This document shows, in pieces, positions 311 through 37,191 of a stretch of DNA of 40,000 bases (within the stretch, counting starts at the first letter, position 1; the number at the start of each line of letters is the position of its first letter). The notes under the pieces were generated by a model. The model did no database searches. It worked only from the letters and a program-made list of their open reading frames with translations, and was not told where the DNA came from. Source of the stretch: an uncultured Nitrososphaerota archaeon (GTDB lineage: Archaea > Thermoproteota > Nitrososphaeria > Nitrososphaerales > Gagatemarchaeaceae). The position numbers and the translations under genes were made by a program. The stretch covers positions 1-40,000 of the forward strand of contig CAWIJZ010000071.1 of the NCBI GenBank assembly GCA_963836465.1. The letters are read 5' to 3'.

Positions 311-324
311 CAGATATATGTTTG
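311..324. repeat. Left copy of the casposon target-site duplication (CAGATATATGTTTG; 15 bp if the ambiguous G325 is counted)
   Basis: Identical to 6204-6217. It directly abuts the outer end of the left terminal inverted repeat. Confidence 0.85.
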
Positions 325-426
325 GTGTGGATATGAGTGCCCCCAGAGTGGCCAGAATTGGCTAATCCTGAATACAGATTAGGGCTCTAGTATTTTGTTT
401 GGACTAGGTAAGCGAAAATGACTAGG
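325..426. repeat. Casposon left terminal inverted repeat (TIR-L, ~102 bp)
   Basis: 325-426 (GTGTGGATATGAGTGCCCCCAGAGTGGCCAGAATTGG...GCGAAAATGACTAGG) is the exact reverse complement of 6102-6203. I compared the two block by block and saw no mismatch. Confidence 0.9.
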
Positions 427-790
427 TTAAGTGCGGGATACTAGGGCTTCCACAATCTGAGAATGTTAGACTTGTCTAATGATTAAAGACCTATCTAATT
501 TAGAATTTCTCAAAAAGAAGACCAAAATGGGCTCTTTTGGTCTGCCCCCCGCACTTTTTGAAAAGGCGCTAATAAGAATCAAGCAATTGTTATTACGAAT
601 CACATAACTTTTATTAACTATACTCCTAGGTCTATACCGCATGAACGAAGCACTTTGTTATTAAATCTAGAAAAGCAAAGCTTTATAAGTAAGTAGGCTG
701 TTTTCTACAGATAGGTTTAAATCATGACAAATTTGGGCCTTGATGCGGACAGAGGGAAGAAAGGACAGATAAAGGGAGTGAGTAGGAGCC

Positions 791-985
791 TTGCTCAACA
801 GTAGGGCTTCTTCGCCTCATGGTGGTGTTACTTCTCGCACCTTCATTCCTCTTTATCTCGACACCTCAGAGTTTGAACCTCTGCAACATGAAGCCACTCG
901 GAGAGACATCTCCGTATTCGAGCTCATCCGAGAATATATCCGTGGTGGACTAGACGGTGGGCTAGAGAAAGGTGAGAATACGTGA
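791..985 (+). CDS. Small ribbon-helix-helix (CopG/Arc-like) DNA-binding protein, putative element regulator
   Basis: 64-aa ORF with a TTG start. The pattern is beta strand (TFIPLYLD), helix (TSEFEPLQHEA), then helix (SVFELIREYIRGGL), which is typical of RHH folds. It is the first gene after a ~360-bp non-coding arm. The start codon is uncertain. Confidence 0.45.
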   Translation: MLNSRASSPHGGVTSRTFIPLYLDTSEFEPLQHEATRRDISVFELIREYIRGGLDGGLEKGENT

Positions 986-1108
986 GCTCAGATACAATAT
1001 CAGAAAGAATCAAAAGAGCTCTAAGTTCGGTACTTTCAGATAAAAGGGAAACAAGCTCTAGCTACGTTACTTCCAGAAAAAGGAACTATTTCAAACCAAG
1101 GCGCTATC

Positions 1109-2107
1109 ATGGAGTCTCCAAATACTGGAATGGTCTCAAATGCTTCGCCCACGACACTTAGGGACGGGTCAAAGAACTGGGTCGTCAACTCGTGGGCCGG
1201 TTATGCGGTCTCGATAATCGAAGGGTTTGGCGCCGGACAAACGGTGCTTATCGGGTCGAATAACCAGACTACCCTTACGTTGACGTCCCCTTTTGCTACA
1301 GTTCCTAATTTTCAATCGGTCTATATCATCACTCAGCTCGCGTCTACTTCTACTGCCGTTCTTACGCCTAAAGGATTAATTTCGGTCACATCTTCACAAT
1401 CGACAGCTACAGACATAGAATCGGGCACGTGGACAACTTCGGCCAATACCAATTTCACTATGACCGTAAAAGGAAACGTCGTTGTTTTTGTTGTCGGGAG
1501 CGGCTCAATTCAAGGATATGGTGATACTCTGAAGCTGTTCCTAGATTCTACCGAAATAGAAGCCGGAGCGACCGCTGGTAATCCGGCCACGACCGGATTT
1601 ATCATTCTCTATGGGGGCTTGGCTTCAGTCAGCGCCGGAGTGCATACGCTTTACATGACTTCAAGCGGCAACCAAAGTGCACAAACTCTCACCTACTACA
1701 TCTTTCAGTCGATACTACCGATAATAGGAAAAGCGAAGGCCTATACAGCGAGTGGCAACGTCGGTGCCACTTTTACTTATGGCTCTGGTTCGCTTTCAGT
1801 CCCATATCCTACTGTCTCATCTCTGACTCCGAGCTACACGATTTATGACTACATGGAAGGGTCTGTCTCGGCTCAAGCCTACTCTTTCAACGTGACCGAC
1901 AACTCCGGCAATCCACTCGTTCAAATCACAACTCCGTCCGACACTCCTACGGTTGACGTACTCTATTCGGCCCAATACGTGACTACCGCATCTTTTCCCG
2001 ACGTTCTCACTGGCGTCTCTGTATCTAGTCCAGCTTCCAGTAGGGCATCAACGCAATTCGGGTTTATCGTGCTCGCTCTTCTAAGTCAGGTGGTGCAAAG
2101 TCCATGA
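1109..2107 (+). CDS. Ser/Thr/Gly/Val-rich, probably all-beta protein of unknown function; candidate surface or structural protein of the element
   Basis: 332-aa ORF with an ATG start. Composition is strongly biased. It carries several N-x-S/T sequons (NAS, NQT, NFT, NQS, NVT) and a short hydrophobic C-terminus (FGFIVLALLSQVV). I recognise no enzymatic motif. Its stop overlaps the next ORF's start (ATGA at 2104-2107). Confidence 0.6.
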   Translation: MESPNTGMVSNASPTTLRDGSKNWVVNSWAGYAVSIIEGFGAGQTVLIGSNNQTTLTLTSPFATVPNFQSVYIITQLASTSTAVLTPKGLISVTSSQSTATDIESGTWTTSANTNFTMTVKGNVVVFVVGSGSIQGYGDTLKLFLDSTEIEAGATAGNPATTGFIILYGGLASVSAGVHTLYMTSSGNQSAQTLTYYIFQSILPIIGKAKAYTASGNVGATFTYGSGSLSVPYPTVSSLTPSYTIYDYMEGSVSAQAYSFNVTDNSGNPLVQITTPSDTPTVDVLYSAQYVTTASFPDVLTGVSVSSPASSRASTQFGFIVLALLSQVVQSP

Positions 2108-2274
2108 CAACGAAGGTCGCTCGCGGAGTCTTTAACTTCTACAGTCCGACATTCGAGGCAACCCTTCTTAGTTGGATAACCGGACTTGGCATAACGACCG
2201 TCATTAGCATTTCGTCCGGCTTCGTCCAAAATAGCGGAGTTCTGGAGTTTTGCGCGGTGGTGATATACTCTTGA
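2104..2274 (+). CDS. Small hydrophobic (membrane) protein, 56 aa; below the ORF-track size cut-off
   Basis: The ATG at 2104 overlaps the TGA of the upstream ORF (ATGA). Translation is MTTKVARGVFNFYSPTFEATLLSWITGLGITTVISISSGFVQNSGVLEFCAVVIYS, with a TM-like core. Its TGA at 2272-2274 overlaps a TTG at 2271-2273 that could start the next gene. Confidence 0.4.
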   Translation: MTTKVARGVFNFYSPTFEATLLSWITGLGITTVISISSGFVQNSGVLEFCAVVIYS

Positions 2275-2771
2275 CCGTAAAAGGCTTAGAAAAATGGATA
2301 GCGCAAGAAGCCAAAGCCGAAAAGGCGCTTAGAGCGGCAGCTAGAAAGGGCAAACGAGAACGCAAGGAGCTTCTAGCCTTAGAAGAGGAGCTTCCCAAAG
2401 TCGAATCTCCAAAAGTCGAGCCTCCAAAGCCGGAATCGAAGCCACTCCCTCATTACGTCTTCGAGGCGCCTAGAATTCCCGAGACTCTAGACACTTCGAT
2501 AGCCTCATCGCTCTATGCAGTACCCAGCGCTTCTATTCCTATTCCGGTCGAGTCTCCGGTCATATCTCAGCCCCGACCACATAGAGTCAAAGCGCCTAAG
2601 TCCACGCCCAAGCCCGCACAACCAAGCTCACAACCAAGAGCGCCGGAGAAGAAAAACTCATGGGTGGACTGGCTTCTTATCGGCGTTATCATGTTTGGGA
2701 CTGCTTTTCTCGGTCTCTATGCGATTAAGCGACCACAACCTAAAAGAAAAGAGGTGAAGGGCTTTGCCTAG
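2250..2771 (+). CDS. Tail-anchored membrane protein with a coiled-coil and a Pro-rich spacer, unknown function
   Basis: 173-aa ORF starting at TTG 2250, or at TTG 2271. It has a Lys/Glu-rich N-terminal helix (EKWIAQEAKAEKALRAAARKGKRERKELLALEEEL), a Pro-rich repeat (KVESPKVEPPKPESKP) and a C-terminal TM helix (WVDWLLIGVIMFGTAFLGLYAI) followed by a basic tail. Confidence 0.6.
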   Translation: MRGGDILLTVKGLEKWIAQEAKAEKALRAAARKGKRERKELLALEEELPKVESPKVEPPKPESKPLPHYVFEAPRIPETLDTSIASSLYAVPSASIPIPVESPVISQPRPHRVKAPKSTPKPAQPSSQPRAPEKKNSWVDWLLIGVIMFGTAFLGLYAIKRPQPKRKEVKGFA

Positions 2772-3129
2772 AGGCGTTCCTAGGAAATTAAGCAACGACG
2801 AGCTTTCAAGCATCGCGGTGCTTTTTGATACCGGATGGGCTTATCGAGCGATATCAAAAGTGTTCTCAATCTCTGAGTACCGACTCGTCAAGACAGTCCA
2901 TGCGCTTAAGCTGAACTTCCCAGCGCACACGCGCGCACGTTACGAGCATCAGCATAAAGACTATGCACGAGCGCACAAGCGGCAAATCGACCATCCAGAC
3001 GAGACCTTCTGGAAGGCCTACAGGTATTCGAAAATCAATTCAGAGCTGGGGCTGGACATTCACTTCAACCCAATTAGGAAGAGAGCTAAGGAACTACTCA
3101 AGCGGTTAAGAAAGCGTGGTTCTCCATGA
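2764..3129 (+). CDS. Basic helix-turn-helix protein, unknown function, immediately upstream of polB
   Basis: 121-aa ORF with a TTG start that overlaps the upstream stop by 8 nt. It has an HTH-like segment (LSNDELSSIAVLFDTGWAYRAISKVFSISEYRLVKTV) and a very basic C-terminus (IRKRAKELLKRLRKRG). Its stop overlaps the polB ATG (ATGA at 3126-3129). Confidence 0.55.
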   Translation: MPRGVPRKLSNDELSSIAVLFDTGWAYRAISKVFSISEYRLVKTVHALKLNFPAHTRARYEHQHKDYARAHKRQIDHPDETFWKAYRYSKINSELGLDIHFNPIRKRAKELLKRLRKRGSP

Positions 3130-5192
3130 ACACAATCGAGCCGGAAATTCAGAATCTTCCCCTAATCCATGACTCCCTTAAAGGCGCTAGACTCGACTCC
3201 GTATTCTCGAAGGTTCTAGGTCTCCCTAGGAGAGTTCCTAAAGAGCCTCTAGGCTTCGATATCGAGTCTGACCAGAACGGAGACATTTACCTTATCGCCT
3301 CAGAAAACAAGTATCTCTTTCTCGATGGCCTTCCCCTAGAAGCGCGTTCTATACTTGCGGTGTATTTTCTCTATCAGGAAGGCTTCGGCCACGTTTGCGC
3401 CTTTTTCAATATCGACTATGACTTTCGAGGTATTGTGAAAGGCTTTATCGTGGAGAAGCCAAAAGAAGAACAAAACCAAATCAGAAAATCGAAGCGTATA
3501 GTAGACGGCGAATACACAATCGACTGGATAAAAGGAAAATCTTTCAAAATCAACAACCCTAGACGCGACTGTGTTTGGGCTTATGATACAGCTAATTTCT
3601 TCGACGGCTCTCTAGAATCAGTCAGTCAAAAGTACCTTGGAGAAGGGAAGGGCGAGCTGTCAAACGAAAAGCTTGATATGAAACATCCTGAAAAGTATCT
3701 CCCTACTCCAAAAGGGAGAAAGCTCCTTAGAGAGCGGTGCATGAAAGACGCCGGTCTCGCCGGAGAGTTGTTGCGATATCTTAGGAAACTCTGTCTCGAC
3801 AATCTTGAAATTGACCCTCCACAATATAATTCTGAAGGCGGTCTCTCCGAGTATTACCTCATTAAGAACGTCGAGCTAAAACACCTTAAGCCCTTCGCTA
3901 TCGAGGGCTTTGACGAATGGGGGCACAATATGGGTAAAGACGTCCACAGAAAGCTAACGCCAAAAATCGTCGAACAAAAGGCGCTATATGAGCAAGTCCT
4001 CGAATACGCCTATCGCTCCTATTATGCGGGTATCTTCTATACTCCATGGCGCGGCCCCGTCGATTTTGCCGTGGAGCTCGATATCACTTCAGCATATCCT
4101 TACCAAATGTCAAAACTAATTAGTCTTTCAGACGGAGAATGGAGAGAAGCTCCTAAAGGCAACTATTCGCCGGAAGCTTGTTACGGCTTCTATCACGCTT
4201 TCATGCGGCCAAACGGAGAATTTCCTTTTCGACTTAAAGGAGAAAAGACAATCTATCCAAAATTCGACTCGGAATTTCTAGAGCGATGGGTAACGAAAGA
4301 CGAGCTTGAATACCTTCTTGAAACCAAGTGTCCGGTCAACATGGTTGACGGCTTCGAGTTCTTTCTCGACGACCCCGAGCACTCTGTTTACCCTTTCAAG
4401 AACGCCGTTTCAAAACTCTTCACCTTAAAGAACGAAGCCGAAAAGTCTGGCGATAAAGGACTTAGGCTTCTCTACAAAACCATTCTAAACGGGATGTATG
4501 GCAAGACCGCACAGAACGTCGAGACTCCTTTCTCTGAATACTTCAAGTCTAGAGTTGGAAGGCTCTTCAATCCGGTATACTCTGCAGTCATTACCGCAAG
4601 AACAAGGCTCGTGCTCTGGAAGAGAGCTAAGAAATACCTCGACCCTATTTACTATCTTGCTACCGATGCAGCGTGTGGAAAGCCCCGTCCGGATGTAGGA
4701 ATAGGGCCCGTATCTGACGAGCTGGGGGACTTTCAGATAAAATATCTGGAAGAGAAAGACGGAGAGCCGAGCAGACGATTCTTCACGGGGTGCATCTTAT
4801 TACAAAATGGCGTGATAACGGACTCTAACGGAACATTCATCAAGACTAGAGGCTTCGCAAAACTAGAAGGCAAGAAACTCATTTACGATAAGGAAAAGGG
4901 GTTCGGGGTAATGACAACCCACGTGATGGGCCTTGCAGAGTCGATACGAAGAAAAAGCGCTGAGAAAATCAACTGGTTTGACGAGAAGACCTTCAGAAGC
5001 ATTAACCCAGTAAATGATTTGTTAATCTATCCGAAAGAGCTTTGGGAAAATCCCAGTCTGGTGCTGACAAAAGGATTCAAGTGCGAACCGGTAGACGAGG
5101 CCTTTATGAAGTCGTGGGAAATACCGGAAAAGAGAAAGGCGCCTCAAACGCTTGTAGCAAGTGCTCCCTCAACGCGAAGGCACACTCCGTGA
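3126..5192 (+). CDS. polB: Family-B DNA polymerase (casposon PolB)
   Basis: 688 aa. Recognisable motifs are Exo I (LGFDIESD), Exo II (FFNIDYDFRGI), Pol A (ELDITSAYPYQM, DxxSxYP), Pol B (KTILNGMYGKTAQ, KxxxNxxYG) and a Pol C-like motif (YYLATDAACG). The last is ATD rather than the canonical DTD. Confidence 0.9.
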   Translation: MNTIEPEIQNLPLIHDSLKGARLDSVFSKVLGLPRRVPKEPLGFDIESDQNGDIYLIASENKYLFLDGLPLEARSILAVYFLYQEGFGHVCAFFNIDYDFRGIVKGFIVEKPKEEQNQIRKSKRIVDGEYTIDWIKGKSFKINNPRRDCVWAYDTANFFDGSLESVSQKYLGEGKGELSNEKLDMKHPEKYLPTPKGRKLLRERCMKDAGLAGELLRYLRKLCLDNLEIDPPQYNSEGGLSEYYLIKNVELKHLKPFAIEGFDEWGHNMGKDVHRKLTPKIVEQKALYEQVLEYAYRSYYAGIFYTPWRGPVDFAVELDITSAYPYQMSKLISLSDGEWREAPKGNYSPEACYGFYHAFMRPNGEFPFRLKGEKTIYPKFDSEFLERWVTKDELEYLLETKCPVNMVDGFEFFLDDPEHSVYPFKNAVSKLFTLKNEAEKSGDKGLRLLYKTILNGMYGKTAQNVETPFSEYFKSRVGRLFNPVYSAVITARTRLVLWKRAKKYLDPIYYLATDAACGKPRPDVGIGPVSDELGDFQIKYLEEKDGEPSRRFFTGCILLQNGVITDSNGTFIKTRGFAKLEGKKLIYDKEKGFGVMTTHVMGLAESIRRKSAEKINWFDEKTFRSINPVNDLLIYPKELWENPSLVLTKGFKCEPVDEAFMKSWEIPEKRKAPQTLVASAPSTRRHTP

Positions 5193-6054
5193 ATTTGCTT
5201 TCATATCGTCTCTTGCTCCCCTTCCATGCGCTTAGTCTGCCGGAGACCTCTTGAATGACTTCTCTTCTCGCGTTCTCTCCTAGTCTCACTTGAAAATCTT
5301 GCGTTCTAATGAAGTCACTAAGTGTCACTTTCTTTTCTCTTACTAAGCCCACTGTCGCGCGTTCGACTAGCGAGCGCCCTAATTCCTGAAAATCATAGAC
5401 CAGTGGAGTTTTGTACGGAGCCATTTCATGCAGAAAGCCAATTTGAGCGTCAAGTCCGGCGAAAGCGATGGCCTTTCTACAAGTGCCCGCTAAAATGGAA
5501 TAGCCATAATTTAACATGGCATTTACCGGATTCGTTGCGTGTAAGCTCTGCGCTGAAGGATTGTTTCCTTTACGCCCCAAATAGCTTTTGAAGCTTGGAT
5601 TAGTCCTTATCGCGTTTGTAAATTCTCGGAAAATTTGTGCTGTTAAACTGCCTTCGGCCAAAAGAAGGGCCTTACTGTCTTGAACGCGTTTTATCGAAGA
5701 AAAGTCTTCAAGCCCCGACGTTTGAGCACGACCTTCGACAAACGCTTTTGCAATTGAAAGCTTTCTTCCTCTATCGCAATACGCTTTGTATTGTTGGATT
5801 CTGACTTTGCCGACTTTTGATTCTGAAGGGACTAGAGAGCAATACATCTCCCCGCGTGAGTCTAGAAAGGAAATGGAAGCACCACCATAAGTTAACCACC
5901 GAAGCGCGTCGATTGTGATATAACCTGAGGGAGACGAGAAAACCAAGTTGGCGTTTTTCAGTTTGCCCAAGTCGATTTTCTCCGAGCCGGTATCTAGTCT
6001 GAGATGATTTACCTTTAGATAGGAACTCCTAGAATCAAGTAAAAGGCTTTGCAT
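5104..6054 (-). CDS. cas1: Cas1-family integrase (casposase)
   Basis: 316 aa. The Cas1 hallmarks are ATNPVNAMLNYGYSILAGTC, LDAQIGFLHE (catalytic His region) and PLVYDFQELGRSLVE (acidic D/E-x-x-E-x-R motif), plus an N-terminal beta-domain-like MQSLLLDSRSSYLKVNHLRL. The start lies 48 bp inside TIR-R. The 3' end overlaps the polB 3' end convergently by 89 nt. Confidence 0.9.
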   Translation of the reverse strand: MQSLLLDSRSSYLKVNHLRLDTGSEKIDLGKLKNANLVFSSPSGYITIDALRWLTYGGASISFLDSRGEMYCSLVPSESKVGKVRIQQYKAYCDRGRKLSIAKAFVEGRAQTSGLEDFSSIKRVQDSKALLLAEGSLTAQIFREFTNAIRTNPSFKSYLGRKGNNPSAQSLHATNPVNAMLNYGYSILAGTCRKAIAFAGLDAQIGFLHEMAPYKTPLVYDFQELGRSLVERATVGLVREKKVTLSDFIRTQDFQVRLGENARREVIQEVSGRLSAWKGSKRRYESKFTECAFALREHLLQAFEAPFSFPVFPTTS

Positions 6055-6058
6055 GGCT

Positions 6059-6070
6059 AAACGCGCGTTT
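6059..6070. promoter_or_regulatory. Perfect 12-bp palindrome AAACGCGCGTTT between a TATA-like box and the cas1 start; candidate operator
   Basis: Read on the minus strand, the region is ...AAAGAGTTAATGGCCTAGACAAACGCGCGTTTAGCC-ATG. An AT-rich TTAAT element lies about 25 nt upstream of the cas1 ATG, and the palindrome sits between the two. Confidence 0.3.
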
Positions 6071-6101
6071 GTCTAGGCCATTAACTCTTTTGTCCTTTTG
6101 C

Positions 6102-6203
6102 CCTAGTCATTTTCGCTTACCTAGTCCAAACAAAATACTAGAGCCCTAATCTGTATTCAGGATTAGCCAATTCTGGCCACTCTGGGGGCACTCATATCCA
6201 CAC
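6102..6203. repeat. Casposon right terminal inverted repeat (TIR-R, ~102 bp)
   Basis: Exact reverse complement of 325-426. Confidence 0.9.
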
Positions 6204-6217
6204 CAGATATATGTTTG
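6204..6217. repeat. Right copy of the casposon target-site duplication (CAGATATATGTTTG; G6218 makes it 15 bp)
   Basis: Identical to 311-324 and directly abuts TIR-R. Confidence 0.85.
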
Positions 6218-9502: not shown

Positions 9503-10020
9503 TTCGATTGTCAAACCACAGTCTCGATCCTCCTGGTCCTCGCGTGGGCCGGTTATGAAGTTGGATTCCATGGACGGCGAACATCCATGGGATTGAGAAC
9601 GCCACTTTTGCTCATCTCGTGCGGGCTCTGCAAGGAGATTTGCCCGGTGGACATCGACATTCCCATGATGATCGCGAAGGTCAAGAGTCAGGAGATTGCG
9701 CTGGACGGCCAGCTCAATCTCAGAGAATCCGACCGCAGACTTATCGCCACAGAGAGCAGCGTGTGCGCCATGCAGTCGAACGATGGACTCCACGCGAGGG
9801 TGATGCATCCACTCTACTTCGTCAAGCCCGAGTTGGTGAGTTAATATGTCATCGGCATTTCCCCGCCGAAAGCTTCTGGGACCTCTGCAACGGATGCTCT
9901 GGTTCCGTGGTTGCGCCAAGCAGACGAAGTGAACTCCTGTTGGAGTCCGAGTCGGGGGATGCACTGTCGCCCTTCTGCCCCAACAATGGCAGTGTCGCAG
10001 GCCTGCGAACAGGTTAGGGG
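9503..10020 (+). pseudogene. Possible remnant of an Fe-S (ferredoxin-type / CCG-domain, GlcF/HdrD-like) oxidoreductase gene
   Basis: One frame reads LLLISCGLCKEICPVDIDIPMMIAKVK, a CxxCxxxCP 4Fe-4S motif. Downstream, a different frame holds Cys-rich pieces (CNGCSG..., ...DALSPFCPNNG...). No single long frame is convincing, and the ~600-bp gap is too short for a full-length homolog. Confidence 0.3.
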
Positions 10021-10636: not shown

Positions 10637-12245
10637 ATGATTGATGTGCCTACGATAGTTCTTGGCATCGCCTTCTCCTGGATCAGGATGATACTGGCGC
10701 TCAGTCTGAGCATCGTGTTCGCGCTCGTGGTCGGAATTACAGCAGCGAGGAACAAGCGGGCGGAGGCGGTGATACTGCCGCTGCTAGACGTTTTCCAGTC
10801 AATTCCGATTCTAGGGTTCTTCCCCATCATCATCTATGGTATCTACTCCGTTCTGCCCAACGATATTGGTGCCAACCTTGCGGTGATTGTCCTAATCTTC
10901 ACCAGCATGTCCTGGAACATTGCCTTCGGTGTCTACGAGGGCGTCAAGGCAATACCACAAGACTATGTAGACCTGCTGGACATGTCCAAGGCGAGCGCGT
11001 GGCAGAGGACGAAGTCGTTGTACATTCCCGCCTCCCTTAGCCGCATCGCCTACAATACGCAAGTTTCTTGGGCCGTCGGCCTATTCTTTCTCGTTTCGAG
11101 TGAGATTATCACCCTGGGAACTCGCATAGTTCCAATCAAGTATGGTATAGGAATCGCGGCAATGAACTTCGCCAGCAGTAATCCACCTGACTATGTTAAC
11201 TACACACTCTCGATAGTAGCTCTCATCGTGACCGTCGTTGTGTGGAGGTTCGTCTTTCTTAGGGAATTCGCGCTCTGGTCAGAGCGGTACAAGATGATGG
11301 AAGAGCCAAGAGAAGCTCACAGAGATCCCATCATGAGATTTTACTCCTGGGTGAATCAAAGAAGTGTCTCCAAACTGTTTCTGCTGACGCAAGGAAGAGG
11401 TGTGAACAGGTTCACATCGGCAATCTACAGGTTCAGGAGGGGAATCAAGTACGCCGTCGCGATCTTGCTCGTTGTGTTCGTGCTGTTTGAGCTAGGTGCA
11501 ACAATGAGCGTTGGAGGTGCGGGTCTGCGCCCACTTCCTCAGGCTTCGGTTCTGCTTTCAGACGAGGGGCAGGTACTCTTCGCGCTTGCCAGCTCTTTTC
11601 TGAGGGTTTGGTACGTCTATGCTATTTGCGCTGCGATCGGGCTCCCACTTGGCATAGTCATATCTCTGAACTTCAAGCTCTACGACACGGTCTCTCCGAT
11701 TCTGGAAGTGATATCCTCGATCCCTGGTCCGATACTACTTCCGGTGTATAATCCTGATTCCCGTGATTGGCACATCTGGAGAGGCGGTAGCCGCAATAAT
11801 CATTATGTTAGCGATTATCTGGTACGTGATTTTCAACGTGATGGCTGGGGTCAGGACGCTACCGGCTGACCTCAAGGACCTTCCCAAAGAGTTCCACGTT
11901 TCGAGATTCTCGGCGTGGAGGAATGTCTACATTCCAGGCTCCATAACGGCTTTCGTAACAGGCTCGATAACCGCGATTGGGGGCGCGTGGAATGCACTGA
12001 TTGTAGCCGAGTACTTTACGTCCCAACGTTCTGTGTGTGTGAATGGAAAGGTCGTCAGCGCCAATGTCCTCACGCAAGTAGGCGCAGGAATAGGCAAGTC
12101 CATAACACTCGCTACTGCCTGTAACGACATCACTATGCTCACACTCGCTGTTCTTTCGATGACTGCTCTTATCGTGGCGTTCAACCTGATAGTCTGGAGG
12201 AGGGTGTACCATCACGCAACGAAACGCTATGCATACAACAGATAA
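10637..12245 (+). pseudogene. ABC transporter permease with two tandem permease domains (NitT/TauT-like); interrupted by one +1 frameshift as sequenced
   Basis: ORF 10637-11869 and ORF 11763-12245 are the two halves of one gene. Domain 1 reads LDVFQSIPILGFFPIIIYG. Domain 2 reads LEVISSIPGPILLPV and breaks near 11748-11751, then continues in the +1 frame as IILIPVIGTSGEAVAAIIIMLAIIWYVIFNVMAGVRTLP. Removing one A from the AA at 11750-11751 would give LLPVYILIPVIG. Confidence 0.75.
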
Positions 12246-15413: not shown

Positions 15414-15759
15414 TTCCTTCTGCGCCCCTCTTCCATTTCGTCTCCATTAAGTCTTCTCCAATGTTAGGAAGGTCGGCGCGCGCAAGTTGAATGGCAAGCC
15501 ACGGCCAAGGCGTTCGTTTGATGGGCTTGGAATTCACTTACAGAGCCCATCCAGGTTCTGGCCCGACTGGGCCCGCTTTTTCCTAAACCGTCGCCGGGAC
15601 TGGTGGAGTCTGACTCAGCATTACTTACCCTCGTTAGTCGCAGGGAAAGCAATGTTTGTTGCAACAATAGCTCAGAATCAAGATTCAGTTTCTTAGGGTC
15701 GTCAGTAAGGGACCATCTAGCGTCGACAAGGTTCATTAGGGTAAGACAACACCTAGTAG

Positions 15760-29718: not shown

Positions 29719-31137
29719 TCACTTCTTCCTCTCGCCGAGTCTCTCCCTCAGGAGCGTGGCGACGACCCTCGGATCGGCCTTCTTGTCCTGCTGTATGACC
29801 TGACCTATCAAGAAGTTAAAGGCCTTGGGGTCTTCGCGGGCCTTCTGGATCAGATTCTGTCGAAGAGCCAGCACTTTCTCTACAATTTCACCGAGTAACG
29901 TTTCGTCGGTAACGGCTCTGTGGCCCGTCCGAGTAACAACAGCCTCGGCTGATTCGCCTGTTGTAATCATCTCCCTGAGCACGTCCCTCGCCTGAACCCT
30001 CGTGAGCGCGTTCGCCTCGACCATCGACAGGAGCTCTGCGAAAGCCTGTGGCTTGAGGGGGATCTTGCCTTCTCGGGACCTATTCTTGCGCACCTCCCCT
30101 ACGAGCCAGTTGGCAACCTCGACGGCGTTGTAATGGCGCTTCACCGTCTCGTCAAAGAGCTTCGAAAGCACTCTATCGCGGGCGATCTCTAGCGCAACCT
30201 GCTCATGGATGCCATTCTCCTTGACATATCTTTCTGCGCGTGCCTCTGGGAGCTCCAGCGTGGCGCTCCGGATTCTTTCCACATCGCTCGCCGTGAAGTG
30301 AACTGGTACTAGGTCGGGCTCCGGGAAGTATCGGTAGTCCTGCTCCTCCTCCTTTGTCCGAAGGGCTATTGTTATGCTCCTCCTTTCATCCCAATGCCTT
30401 GTCTCGCTCTTCTTTTTCGGTCCCTCAGCCTCGAAGGTCCTCTGCCTCAGGATCTCGTAGCTCAGAGCTTTCTCAACCTCCTTGAAAGAGGAGATGTTCT
30501 TGATCTCGACCCTTGATCCGCTTCCCAGGGAGACATTCGCGTCGCATCGCATGGCGCCCTCAAGTTCGCCGTTGGACACGCCGAGGAATTCGATTATTCT
30601 CCTCAGCCTGGCGAGGAAGATTTTCGCGTCACGCGCGCTGGAGATATCAGGTTCCGTAACAATCTCAACCAGAGGTATCCCAGACCTGTTGTAGTCCACG
30701 AAGCTGTGGCTCGAATGCTCAATCGTTCCCTCGTAGGTCAGCTTTCCAGGGTCCTCCTCGAGCTGAACCCTTCGTATTCTCACCTCTCTGTCTTCAAGAC
30801 GCACACTACCGTTGGTAGCTATCGGTATTCCCCCAGCCTTGTCGTACTGACTGATTTGGAAGCTCTTCGGGAGGTCTGGGTAGAAATAGTTCTTACGATA
30901 GAAAAGAGTCCTCTCAGCGATCGAACAGTTCAGCGCTAGTGCTATCGTGACGGCGCACTCAACGGCCTTCTTGCTGACAACGGGGAGCGAACCCGGAATG
31001 CCAAAGCAGACGGGGCAAATCACTGTGTTCGGGTCCTTCTCCCTGTAATCAGACGAGCAACTACAGAAGAGCTTCGTAGGAACGCAAGTCAACTGGCAGT
31101 GCACTTCAAGACCGATCCTTATTGACGAGTCAACCAT
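29719..31137 (-). CDS. gatB: Asp-tRNA(Asn)/Glu-tRNA(Gln) amidotransferase subunit B
   Basis: 472 aa. It has IGLEVHCQL, NRSGIPLVEIVTEPD and CDANVS, plus a YqeY-like tail. Confidence 0.92.
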   Translation of the reverse strand: MVDSSIRIGLEVHCQLTCVPTKLFCSCSSDYREKDPNTVICPVCFGIPGSLPVVSKKAVECAVTIALALNCSIAERTLFYRKNYFYPDLPKSFQISQYDKAGGIPIATNGSVRLEDREVRIRRVQLEEDPGKLTYEGTIEHSSHSFVDYNRSGIPLVEIVTEPDISSARDAKIFLARLRRIIEFLGVSNGELEGAMRCDANVSLGSGSRVEIKNISSFKEVEKALSYEILRQRTFEAEGPKKKSETRHWDERRSITIALRTKEEEQDYRYFPEPDLVPVHFTASDVERIRSATLELPEARAERYVKENGIHEQVALEIARDRVLSKLFDETVKRHYNAVEVANWLVGEVRKNRSREGKIPLKPQAFAELLSMVEANALTRVQARDVLREMITTGESAEAVVTRTGHRAVTDETLLGEIVEKVLALRQNLIQKAREDPKAFNFLIGQVIQQDKKADPRVVATLLRERLGERKK

Positions 31138-32586
31138 GACTCATCACACTCTCATAGGCGTGGGCCGATTCAAGGAGCAGGTCCTCCCTGAAATGAGGGG
31201 CCATGAGCTGAAGGCCTATGGGATGGCTCCGTCTACTTCCGCATGGCACACTCACAGCTGGTAAACCAACGAGGTTTGCGGGAACGGTGTTCACGTCCAT
31301 CGCGTACTCCTCGAGCGGGCTCATCTCGTCCCTAAGCCTGGGAGGGAGGACTGGCATTGTTGGCGTCGCGAGAAGGTCGAATCTCTTGAAGACTGACGCG
31401 AGCTCGTTTCTGAGCATCGTTCTGATCTTCTGAGCCCGGAGGTAGTAGGCTTCGGAGTAGCCGGCAGAGAGCGCAAAGGTTCCGAGGAGAATGCGCCTCT
31501 TCACTTCGGCCCCGAAGAGCTCGCTCCTCGTTCGCGAGTAAGCAGCGTTCCAGTCCTCGCGGTCCCTCTCAGCGGCCCCACTCTGTCTTCCCACCGTACC
31601 GTACTCCATCGTACCTCGCGAGGTTCGAGCTCGCTTCGGCCATGGCAATGATGTAGTATGCAGCCAGGGCGTACTCTAGGGAGGCAACAGACACCTCCTC
31701 GACGACTGCACCGAACTCTTCGAACTTCGAAATCGCCTCTCTGACTGTGCGCTGCACGACGTGCTGCGTTCCCTCTGCCTCCATCGACTCGCGCAGCAAT
31801 GCCAGCCTGAGCTTACAACGTGGGGCCTTGAGGTACCTGAGATAGTCGTGATGCTCCGTCATCACAGATGTTCCGTCTCGGGGGTCATGGCCTGCTATGG
31901 CACTGAGAAGTATCGACACGCCGGCTACATCGCTTGCCATTGGGCCGATCTGCTCGAGGCTGTTCGCGTACGCTATGAGCCCGTACCTGCTAACGAGCCC
32001 GTAGGTGGGCTTCAGACCAACGATTGAGCAGAAGCTCGCGGGACAGCGTATGGACCCCCCAGTGTCTGAGCCCAAGGCGAGGGCCGCGATCCCCGCAGCC
32101 ACAGCAGCGCCGCTTCCACCCGAGGAGCCTCCAGGGGTACACTCCTCGTTCAACGGATTCACGACAGGTCCAAACGCGCTGCTCTCTGTCGTGGTCCCCA
32201 TGGCGAACTCATCCATGTTCGTCTTGCCGATGATGACCCCGCCCTGAGAAACAATTCGCTCAATCACGGTCGCGTCGTAAGGCGGCATGAAGCGCTCCAG
32301 CATTCTTGACGCACAGGTCGTTCTCAATCCCTTGGTGCAGATGTTGTCCTTCACTGCGACAGTCACTCCTGCTACGGACCCCGAGTCTTTCTCCGCGCTT
32401 AGCCTTCATATCAATCAGCCTCGCTCTGGCGAGAGCCTCTTCCGGACAGAGCGTGATGAACGCATTCAGTCTCGGATTCAGACGACTCGCCTTCTCCAGT
32501 GATTGGGAAACGTATTCCTCGCAGCTGGCCTCCTGAGTAATCACTCTTTTGGATATCTCAACCGCTGAGAGGCCTGTCAGGTCCAT
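31130..32586 (-). pseudogene. gatA: Glu-tRNA(Gln)/Asp-tRNA(Asn) amidotransferase subunit A; two frameshifts as sequenced
   Basis: Three overlapping ORF fragments (32260-32586, 31569-32366, 31130-31648) together give a colinear GatA. It includes the amidase signature (GGSSGGSGAAVAAG). The breaks are at the T3/A3 run at 32388-32390 and the C3/G3 run at 31590-31592. Confidence 0.88.
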
Positions 32587-35923: not shown

Positions 35924-37191
35924 CTAGTGCCAGCCACTGAGTCTCATAGCAGCTACAACCCTATTCACAGAGATGGTGAGCGCGGCTCTCCTCAGGTCGA
36001 CATTCTCCTTTAGCGAGTACTCTAGGACCTGGTTGAAGGCCTTCATCATCTTGAGCTCCAGTCTCTCGTTTACCGCCTCCTCTGTCCAATGGTCCCTGTT
36101 GAGGTTCTGAACCCACTCGAAATAGGAAACCAGAACGCCCCCCGAATTCGCCAGAATGTCAGGGACAACCTTCGGTTCCGCTCTTCTCGAGGAGATGATC
36201 CGCCTGAGGTGTGGTGGGGCCGTTGGCTCCCTCAACGATAAGCTTCGCTCTTATTCTCCTCGCATTTGCCCTGGTTATCTGATTCTCAAGAGCTGCTGGA
36301 ACAAGGACATCCACCTCAGACTCCAAGAGTTCCTCGTTCGATATCTGCTCAGCGCCTTGTATCCTGCTGACAGATCCAAGTTGCTTCGAGGCATCTAGCA
36401 ACTCGTCAAATGACTGCGCAACCGATTCACCGGTTGCCCTTGCCCCTCCGACAACGTCACCTACGGCCACCACTTTGGCGCCCATATTCATTAAGCATGC
36501 GACCGTGTTCGACCCAACATTCCCGAATCCTTGCACAGCCACAGTGACATCCTTGATGCTCTTCTTCAAGAACCTCTCAACCGCCTCCCTGACGCAGATT
36601 GAGACTCCCCTTCCAGTGGCCGCGTTCCTGCCTTCAGACCCCCCTAGCTCGATGGGCTTTCCAGTCACCACGGCTGGTTCGTTGTGTCCCTTTAGCCTCG
36701 AGTATTCGTTCATTATCCACGCCATGGTTTGAGCGTTCGTGTTGACGTCTGGTGCTGGGATGTCAATATCGGGAGCCATGTCACGTTCCATGGCATCAAC
36801 GTATTTCCTCGTGAGGAACTTCGAGATCATCCTGGTTGAGCTTGGATGGGTCGACAGTTATTCCTCCCTTCGCTCCTCCGAACGGGACATCGATGACTGC
36901 CGTCTTCCAGGTCATCAACATGGCGAGGGCTTTGACCTCGCTAAGGCGGACAATTGGGTGGTACCTCAAACCGCCCTTGTATGGACCTCTGGCATTGTTG
37001 TGCTGGACTCTATACCCGATGAAGGTAGTCGAGCTTCCATCTGTCAGTTTCATGGGAAGGGAAACGGTTACTTCTCTCCTGGGGTTCTTCAGTGTTTCAT
37101 AGTAATCCGGCTCGATGGCGAGGACATCGGCAACCGACGCGAGTTGTGCGAGCGCGTTGCTGAAGGGGTCTTCCTCGGAAAATTCACTCAT
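35924..37191 (-). pseudogene. Glutamate dehydrogenase, second paralog; two frameshifts as sequenced
   Basis: There are three colinear fragments. 36796-37191 carries ...YKGGLRYHP...DVPFGGAKGG. 36159-36830 carries ...DIPAPDVNTNAQTMAWI...VAVQGFGNVGS...EGANGPTTP. 35924-36235 carries ...PDILANSGGVLVSYFEWVQN.... Confidence 0.85.

Follow-up and report, generated by a model that had tools for sequence, protein, structure and literature searches.

Positions 325-6203 of the 40,000-nucleotide stretch of DNA analyzed here (positions 1 to 40,000 of contig CAWIJZ010000071.1, assembly GCA_963836465.1; hereafter the window) hold a complete casposon of 5,879 bp that likely belongs to a rare and apparently undescribed lineage, in which a family-2-type casposase, here without its C-terminal helix-turn-helix (HTH) domain, is combined with a module built around a family B DNA polymerase of the protein-primed type (pPolB). 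The features by which the casposon superfamily is recognized are all present, comprising a Cas1 with its catalytic residues intact, a family B DNA polymerase (PolB) of the element's own, and terminal inverted repeats (TIRs) bounded by a target-site duplication (TSD). By phylogeny and gene content the element falls outside family 1, and by gene content outside families 2 and 4. The CRISPR adaptation module is proposed to descend from casposons, of which four families and one further proposed family have been described, with very few of their enzymes studied; the pairing of a family-2-type casposase with a protein-primed polymerase would show that the integrase and replication modules of these elements are exchangeable.

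Family 1 is thaumarchaeal and is defined by a pPolB, found together with a separate clade of compact Cas1 proteins lacking extra domains; its elements carry three to four small conserved genes upstream of polB, the one just upstream having been proposed as the terminal protein, and their usual target is ef-2, with exceptions (PMC4046053, PMC6563490). The HTH-less family-1 casposase of Nitrosopumilus koreensis is active in vitro and gives a TSD of 13 bp (PMC8464041). In family 2, Cas1 always has a C-terminal HTH and is accompanied by an RNA-primed PolB, an HNH nuclease and two HTH proteins, one of them with HEAT repeats, and the elements target tRNA genes or intergenic sites with a TSD of ∼14 bp (PMC4046053, PMC4779613). 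The casposase of Methanosarcina mazei has no integration activity without its HTH (PMC6977970). Family 3 is bacterial, and family 4 consists of the M. mazei IR2 elements, which have a Cas1 sister to that of family 2, an RNA-primed PolB, an HNH nuclease and 225-bp TIRs (PMC4779613). The proposed family 5 comes from hot springs, has Cas1 proteins next to subtype I-A Cas1 and is mostly without PolB (PMC9755687); a 2023 review still counts four families (PMC9939771). A pPolB has been described for family 1 only (PMC4046053, PMC6563490, PMC4779613).

Element Boundaries and Insertion Site

The ends of the element are set by the TIR and TSD pair (table 1). Inverted repeats were detected at 311-426 and 6102-6217 and were dissected into the TSD and the TIR proper, which the repeat finder had fused because CAGATATATGTTTG is partly palindromic. 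The two TIRs are complementary at 102 of 102 positions (100% identical), and the TSD is a 14/14 identical direct repeat with an ambiguous 15th base, G. The empty target site as deduced reads left flank AAATACTCG, then CAGATATATGTTTG, then right flank GGGACCGCG. The element sits in an intergenic site, flanked by the ATG of a minus-strand gene (288-286) on the left and by the stop codon of a cyclase gene (6344) on the right, and no tRNA was found beside it. The GC content of the element is 46.7%, against 53.9% for the rest of the window. That the TIRs are identical may stem from recent transposition or from protein-primed replication that homogenizes the ends.

The plus-strand ORFs between 791 and 5192 form a chain in which each overlaps the next, PolB being the last, and the convergent Cas1 and PolB genes overlap by 89 bp at their 3' ends. 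An independent assembly from Logan (ERR10755942, contig L001, 2,969 bp) contains the same Cas1 (100% identical) with the adjoining PolB, which makes an assembly chimera at the junction of the two genes less likely.

The TSD contains the hexamer ATATAT, whose distance upstream of the left-flank gene's start codon (26-31 nt) is that expected for the TATA box of a leaderless archaeal mRNA. By duplicating the TSD, the insertion may have regenerated the core promoter of this gene.

Table 1. Features of the window casposon, with positions in the window
Feature	Position	Strand	Evidence
Left TSD, CAGATATATGTTTG	311-324		Identical copy at 6204-6217; 22 nt upstream of left-flank ATG (288-286, minus strand)
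Left TIR, 102 bp, 5'-GTGTGG start	325-426		Complementary to 6102-6203; GTGTG terminus also in siblings L099 and L095
58-aa open reading frame (ORF), reality uncertain	466-642	-	ORF listing; no family match
64-aa ORF, possible ribbon-helix-helix (RHH) DNA-binding protein; first in plus-strand operon	791-985	+	Weak Pfam RHH_1 (CopG) match, E 0.026, below curated cut-off
59-aa ORF, function unassigned	982-1161	+	No Pfam or PHROG matches
332-aa Ser/Thr-rich, Cys-free, beta-rich orphan ORF, element-specific	1109-2107	+	No Pfam or PHROG match; singleton cluster
56-aa ORF, function unassigned	2104-2274	+	No Pfam or PHROG matches
173-aa Pro/Lys-rich ORF with hydrophobic C-terminal segment (membrane-anchored)	2250-2771	+	Translation; no significant family match
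121-aa conserved small protein, candidate terminal protein or DNA-binding partner of the pPolB	2764-3129	+	Homologs at the same position in siblings
Protein-primed-type family B DNA polymerase, 688 aa	3126-5192	+	Pfam DNA_pol_B_2 PF03175, E 4.4e-14; PHROG DNA polymerase family, 1.6e-27
Casposase (Cas1 homolog), 316 aa, family-2-like core without C-terminal HTH	5104-6054	-	Pfam Cas_Cas1 PF01867, E 5.7e-43
Right TIR, 102 bp, CCACAC-3' end	6102-6203		Starts 47 nt upstream of the Cas1 start codon
Right TSD, CAGATATATGTTTG	6204-6217		Matches 311-324

A Family-2-Like Casposase without HTH

Residues 37-289 of the window Cas1 align with residues 65-328 of the M. mazei casposase chain (6opm) at 34% identity (139 bits, E 3e-39), and in this alignment the catalytic motifs E134, H209 and D221/E224 are kept. 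Only 27 residues remain past the catalytic domain, too few for an HTH of 60-70 residues (PMC6977970), so that the protein is without a C-terminal HTH; a search for an HTH remnant downstream of the stop codon returned only noise in any frame. The window Cas1 scores 139-152 bits with family-2-type casposases versus 69 bits with family 1, to whose Cas1 proteins it is 19-23% identical, and its score with the M. mazei casposase far exceeds that with CRISPR Cas1. Our family-1 set was drawn from loci in which Cas1 accompanies a pPolB of the Nitrosopumilaceae type, one of which lies on the Candidatus Nitrosotalea devanaterra chromosome, and the resulting clade of 20 Cas1 sequences, N. devanaterra among them, has 100% bootstrap support and leaves the window Cas1 outside.

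In a database of 5.8 billion clusters the window Cas1 is a singleton. Its top matches there are Nitrosopumilus proteins of ∼410 aa (P0002-P0120; 31-36% identity, ∼150 bits), which differ from it in carrying a ∼30-aa insertion and a C-terminal tail and which align end-to-end with 6opm, HTH included (241 bits). These proteins were considered as family-1 casposases and rejected as such, being family-2-like with an HTH and having, where the context was examined, no PolB or TIRs nearby. More than 100 of them are family-2-like casposases with a C-terminal HTH. In the single context examined, that of Nitrosopumilus sp. CP046181 (Cas1 at L098 10001-11239; L097/L098), Cas1 is a solo gene with no PolB and no TIRs within 10 kb, and the ∼410-aa protein looks like a widespread solo or domesticated casposase of marine ammonia oxidizers.

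A Protein-Primed-Type Polymerase

The Pfam family matched by the window PolB is the organellar and viral protein-primed polymerase type, and the residues of Exo I-III and of motifs A, B and C are all conserved in an alignment with relatives. A search of the PDB with the single sequence returned nothing; the PDB matches came from a profile search, in which the PolB profile gave one continuous alignment with phi29 DNA polymerase over chain positions 222-490, whereas the RNA-primed Pol II of Escherichia coli aligned in separate blocks only. Set against the domain boundaries of phi29 DNA polymerase, this segment comprises motif A and the TPR1 region together with motifs B and C. The segment matching TPR2 is much shorter in the window PolB than in phi29.

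A word-indexed search found only eight distant matches, on contigs without Cas1, and an exhaustive search found 982 relatives, including a close group (P0132-P0138) with E values of 1e-54 to 1e-72. In a tree of 64 sequences the window PolB belongs to a 19-member clade (81% bootstrap) that stands apart from the family-1 pPolBs, from the Cas1-linked pPolBs of Thermoplasmata and Alphaproteobacteria, and from the polymerases of two IMG/VR contigs, L067 (14,462 bp) and L068 (16,067 bp), which by their lengths we presume to be the haloarchaeal viruses His1 and His2. Identity is 26% to family-1 PolBs (Nitrosopumilaceae group arCOG15271) versus 30-36% to the siblings described below. The next-nearest relatives are encoded on 8-10-kb contigs with all genes on one strand and no Cas1, resembling small linear replicons.

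Cas1 also occurs beside a protein-primed-type PolB in metagenome-assembled genomes (MAGs) of Thermoplasmata/Lutacidiplasmatales (L027, L032, L033, L042) and of Alphaproteobacteria (L051-L053, L058, L061, L062), the Cas1 proteins of each group forming a clade of their own (99-100% bootstrap). The literature that we found, which was open-access, describes pPolB casposons in Thaumarchaeota only.

Sibling Elements

Members of the close PolB clade with usable context have a common three-gene core, in which a ∼115-aa protein with a Ser-Pro end and the pPolB are joined by Cas1 on the other strand. A homolog of the small ORF lies upstream of PolB in all six usable contexts, and Cas1 is opposite in strand to PolB in five of them (L089, L092, L093, L095/96 and L099); the contexts of P0135 and P0137, too short to judge Cas1 linkage, are outside this count. 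Beyond the three core genes, the accessory genes differ in every element. Flanking genes gave no informative matches from which the hosts of the siblings could be named.

Two siblings could be delimited in the same way as the window element, and all three have TIRs that start with 5'-GTGTG. The first (L099, 8584-15464; 6.9 kb, within a 791-kb contig) has TIRs of ∼150 bp that are 96% identical and lies at the 3' end of an intron-containing tRNA-Leu gene (region 15465-15617), its 16-bp TSD GTGCGGGGGGTGGGAT being the tRNA 3' end. This tRNA was missed by default ARAGORN and by Rfam and was found by reading the flank and by an intron-allowing search; the intron, at or near position 37/38, measures ∼95 nt by reading and 67 nt by ARAGORN. 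The second (L095; ∼6.8 kb) has an inverted-repeat match of 48 bp and a 14-bp TSD, CACAATTTATTGTG, and its target is not a tRNA gene, none being found on either side. Directly outside its left TIR (5876-5893) lies GTGCGGGGGGGTGGGA, nearly identical to the tRNA-Leu 3'-end TSD of L099, which may be the scar of an earlier or tandem insertion.

In every sibling Cas1 scores higher with the family-2 and ∼410-aa type (85-191 bits) than with family 1 (60-99 bits). The Cas1 of L093 (370 aa) aligns over residues 1-364 with positions 18-406 of the M. mazei 6opm chain, HTH included, whereas those of the window, L099, L089, L092 and L095 end where the HTH would start; in the latter four siblings, as in the window, the catalytic motifs are intact. 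Read most simply, these sequences point to a family-2-type casposase that was inherited by the lineage and whose HTH most members then lost. The shortness of the window Cas1 is accordingly best read as loss of a family-2 HTH that is still present in L093, and the protein would be short for a different historical reason than the Cas1 of family 1.

A Conserved Ser-Pro Protein Upstream of PolB

The stop codon of the 121-aa ORF overlaps the ATG of PolB (CC-ATG-A). The ORF and its six homologs (in L089, L092, L093, L095/96, L099 and L090/91) have in common an HTH-like N-terminal segment (…GWS…I…), a basic central part, the motif LGL…(D/N)P and an invariant C-terminal Ser-Pro-stop. Among 142 pPolB loci the Ser-Pro ending is essentially limited to the new lineage, family 1 and a few neighbors. 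Both AGY and TCN codons are used for its Ser (Ser120 in the 121-aa window protein), and the stop is an overlapping TGA in some cases and a non-overlapping TAA in others, indicating that the constraint acts on the protein. In all 16 family-1 loci a different, unalignable protein of ∼110-140 aa occupies the same position and ends in NPSP, sometimes NPSG; hhalign detected no similarity between the small proteins of the two groups (probability 0.2), which have position, size and the C-terminal Ser-Pro alone in common. The small protein would fit the 2014 proposal that a terminal protein is encoded just upstream of polB.

The Ser-Pro gene and PolB are directly coupled in elements other than L099, where a short ORF with many Cys/His pairs (…CPRCYRMF…HAFECQFCHRIF…; 9597-9803) and zinc-finger-like in appearance lies between the two.

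Relationship to Described Casposon Families

Family 2 (MetMaz-C1 of M. mazei and AciBoo-C1 of Aciduliprofundum boonei) contains the closest characterized relative of the window casposase core, and the window element resembles it further in its ∼14-bp TSD, as do other members of the lineage through integration at the tRNA-Leu 3' end (L099), beside the intergenic site of the window, and through the HTH kept in L093. The window element differs from family 2 in its HTH-less Cas1, its protein- rather than RNA-primed PolB, the absence of an HNH gene and of a HEAT-repeat HTH protein (the only HTH-type proteins being the HTH-like small protein and the weak RHH match), and its host, a member of the Nitrososphaerota. 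Family 4 is set apart by gene content, the window element having a pPolB and no HNH gene; its Cas1 is absent from our tree. The proposed family 5 (PMC9755687), compared by its published description, is probably unrelated; the window Cas1 is linked to a PolB.

The initial annotation of this stretch, made from the sequence alone, had noted a Cas1 ending soon after its catalytic domain, a 688-aa PolB and no ORF with HNH-like motifs, and these observations stand: the end of Cas1 and the PolB ORF are as it gave them, the latter being of the protein-primed type by PF03175, and no ORF of the element matches an HNH family in Pfam even at E≤5, nor is there a paired CxxC motif in any of its six frames, the accessory ORFs having 0-1 Cys each. 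Its view that the core does not fit family 2 is borne out by the lack of the Cas1 HTH, of HNH and of an RNA-primed PolB, and its description of a short Cas1 with a pPolB as the family-1 pattern agrees with the published one (PMC4046053, PMC8464041). Of the two origins that it left open, an undescribed casposon lineage is favored and a family-1-like element in a new host is not, as the host belongs to the phylum of family-1 hosts and the family-1 Cas1 clade excludes the window protein. Nesting of both Cas1 and PolB within one described family with the same gene content was looked for and not found.

A divergent family-1 casposon in the broad sense, whose distance from the Nitrosopumilaceae elements reflects host divergence only, is in our judgment an unlikely identity for the element. 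Like the members of family 1 (NitAR1-C1, NitDev-C1/C2 and relatives; Thaumarchaeota), it has a pPolB, a compact Cas1 without extra domains, a thaumarchaeal host, TIRs with a TSD, and a small conserved ORF with a Ser-Pro end that abuts the PolB start as the candidate terminal protein of family 1 does; its intergenic target also has a precedent in the family-1 element NitEve-C1 (PMC6563490). However, its Cas1 and PolB each fall outside the family-1 clades, the Cas1 clade being fully supported, and Cas1, at its low identity to family 1, scores twice as high to family-2-type casposases. The conserved small genes of family 1 were undetectable in the window element by phmmer and hhalign, its target is not ef-2, and its TSD measures 14 bp compared with 13 bp in N. 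koreensis (PMC8464041). Among the siblings, L093 keeps the family-2 HTH and L099 targets tRNA-Leu, as family 2 does.

Several points weigh against assigning the element to a separate, undescribed lineage with a family-2-type casposase. The deep nodes joining the Cas1 proteins of the window and its siblings, M. mazei and the ∼410-aa type are weak, with support of 26-74%, and the position of the window Cas1 beside the M. mazei casposase has 34% support. The trees were made by neighbor-joining from Kimura distances; family 2 is represented in the Cas1 tree by one characterized sequence and the Nitrosopumilus homologs, and A. boonei and families 3, 4 and 5 were left out of the references. As far as we found, the lineage has not been described, the literature covered being open-access, so that an existing description could be missed. 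As for the terminal protein, the AF2 model of the 121-aa protein is all-alpha but of low confidence (pLDDT 50) and too poor for a fold search, thus lending no structural support to such a role, and the protein has no detectable homology to known terminal proteins. Despite these points, a lineage of its own remains in our view the likely placement.

We put forward more tentatively, as a possibility with somewhat less than even prospects, that this lineage is a new casposon family that arose by module exchange, in which the HTH was lost naturally, possibly repeatedly, giving a living series from HTH-dependent casposases to a minimal Cas1-like integrase, and that the Ser-Pro protein, although unalignable with that of family 1, is the long-sought casposon terminal protein.

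Activity and Proposed Mechanism

Judged by its sequence, the window element is probably active. It could instead be an immobilized relic whose Cas1, deprived of an HTH that its closest characterized relative cannot do without, no longer supports transposition, given that the M. mazei casposase cannot integrate without this domain (PMC6977970), that the window Cas1 has no companion in its cluster, and that split genes (gatA and an ABC permease) occur elsewhere in the assembly. We regard this as improbable: neither the 102-bp TIRs nor the two copies of the TSD differ at a single position and every ORF is intact, no fewer than four other siblings without HTH (L099, L089, L092, L095) keep the Cas1 motifs, one of them (L099) with a clean TSD, and an HTH-less family-1 casposase is active in vitro (PMC8464041).

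Still less probable is the integrated form of a small linear plasmid or virus that has a pPolB, employs a captured Cas1 for integration and passes through an extrachromosomal, possibly encapsidated stage, rather than being a strict transposon; small linear pPolB replicons (L067/L068 and the 8-10-kb metagenomic contigs, among them the next-nearest relatives in the PolB tree) do have a pPolB of the same broad branch, TIRs and small size, long identical TIRs are typical of protein-primed linear genomes, and the 332-aa beta-rich orphan and the membrane-anchored Pro-rich ORF have no assigned functions, but those replicons have no Cas1, no chromosomal TSD flanks and no other genes in common with the window element, no capsid, packaging or other virion gene was recognized in it with Pfam or PHROG, the accessory genes differ from sibling to sibling where virion genes should be conserved, and all complete copies seen are chromosomally integrated with TSDs.

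For an active casposon of the lineage proposed here, we predict that the casposase, bound to the GTGTG-ended TIRs, would link their 3' ends to the target at positions staggered by 14 bp, and that repair of the resulting gaps would generate the TSD. The pPolB would copy the element from its TIRs with a protein primer, for which the best candidate is the conserved ∼115-aa protein encoded directly upstream of, and translationally coupled to, PolB; its invariant C-terminal Ser-Pro may carry the priming serine or dock on the polymerase. As the HTH is required for activity of the M. mazei casposase, two options for target recognition were raised: it may be intrinsic to the HTH-less casposase, as in the family-1 enzyme of N. 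koreensis, or it may depend on DNA binding supplied in trans, either by the HTH-like small protein or by the product of the weak RHH match (791-985).

The occurrence of HTH-bearing and HTH-less versions of closely related casposases in one lineage bears on the question, raised in the M. mazei structure paper, of how Cas1 came to work without an HTH. At 5.9 kb and with a three-gene core, the window element would count as a very small self-synthesizing transposon, which could conveniently serve as a minimal system in biochemical work. The Ser-Pro-ended small protein is a specific candidate, accessible to mutation, for the primer protein whose existence in pPolB casposons has been postulated since 2014.

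Accessory Genes and Host

The accessory ORFs gave no phmmer match to the 16 family-1 loci. The stop of the 64-aa ORF overlaps the start of the 59-aa ORF that follows it. For the 332-aa ORF no homolog was found in the siblings or in the family-1 loci, and its AF2 single-sequence model (pLDDT 31) was too poor for a fold search.

For the host, the initial annotation had called for taxonomic placement by housekeeping genes. GatB (29719-31137, minus strand) is 57-63% identical to proteins of Thaumarchaeota, Nitrososphaerales and Nitrososphaerota MAGs, with Bathyarchaeia and others at ∼50%, and by this single marker the host is placed as a divergent member of the Nitrososphaerota (Thaumarchaeota), the same phylum as the hosts of family 1. 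The GTDB species representatives do not include this contig. Some host genes in the window are split or truncated, either by assembly frameshifts or as pseudogenes, and ORF lengths in the contig call for some caution. The gatA gene (Amidase) is divided into two overlapping ORFs (31130-32366), an ABC permease is likewise found in two ORFs (10637-12245), and a second Glu/Leu dehydrogenase is present as a 223-aa fragment only (36159-36830).

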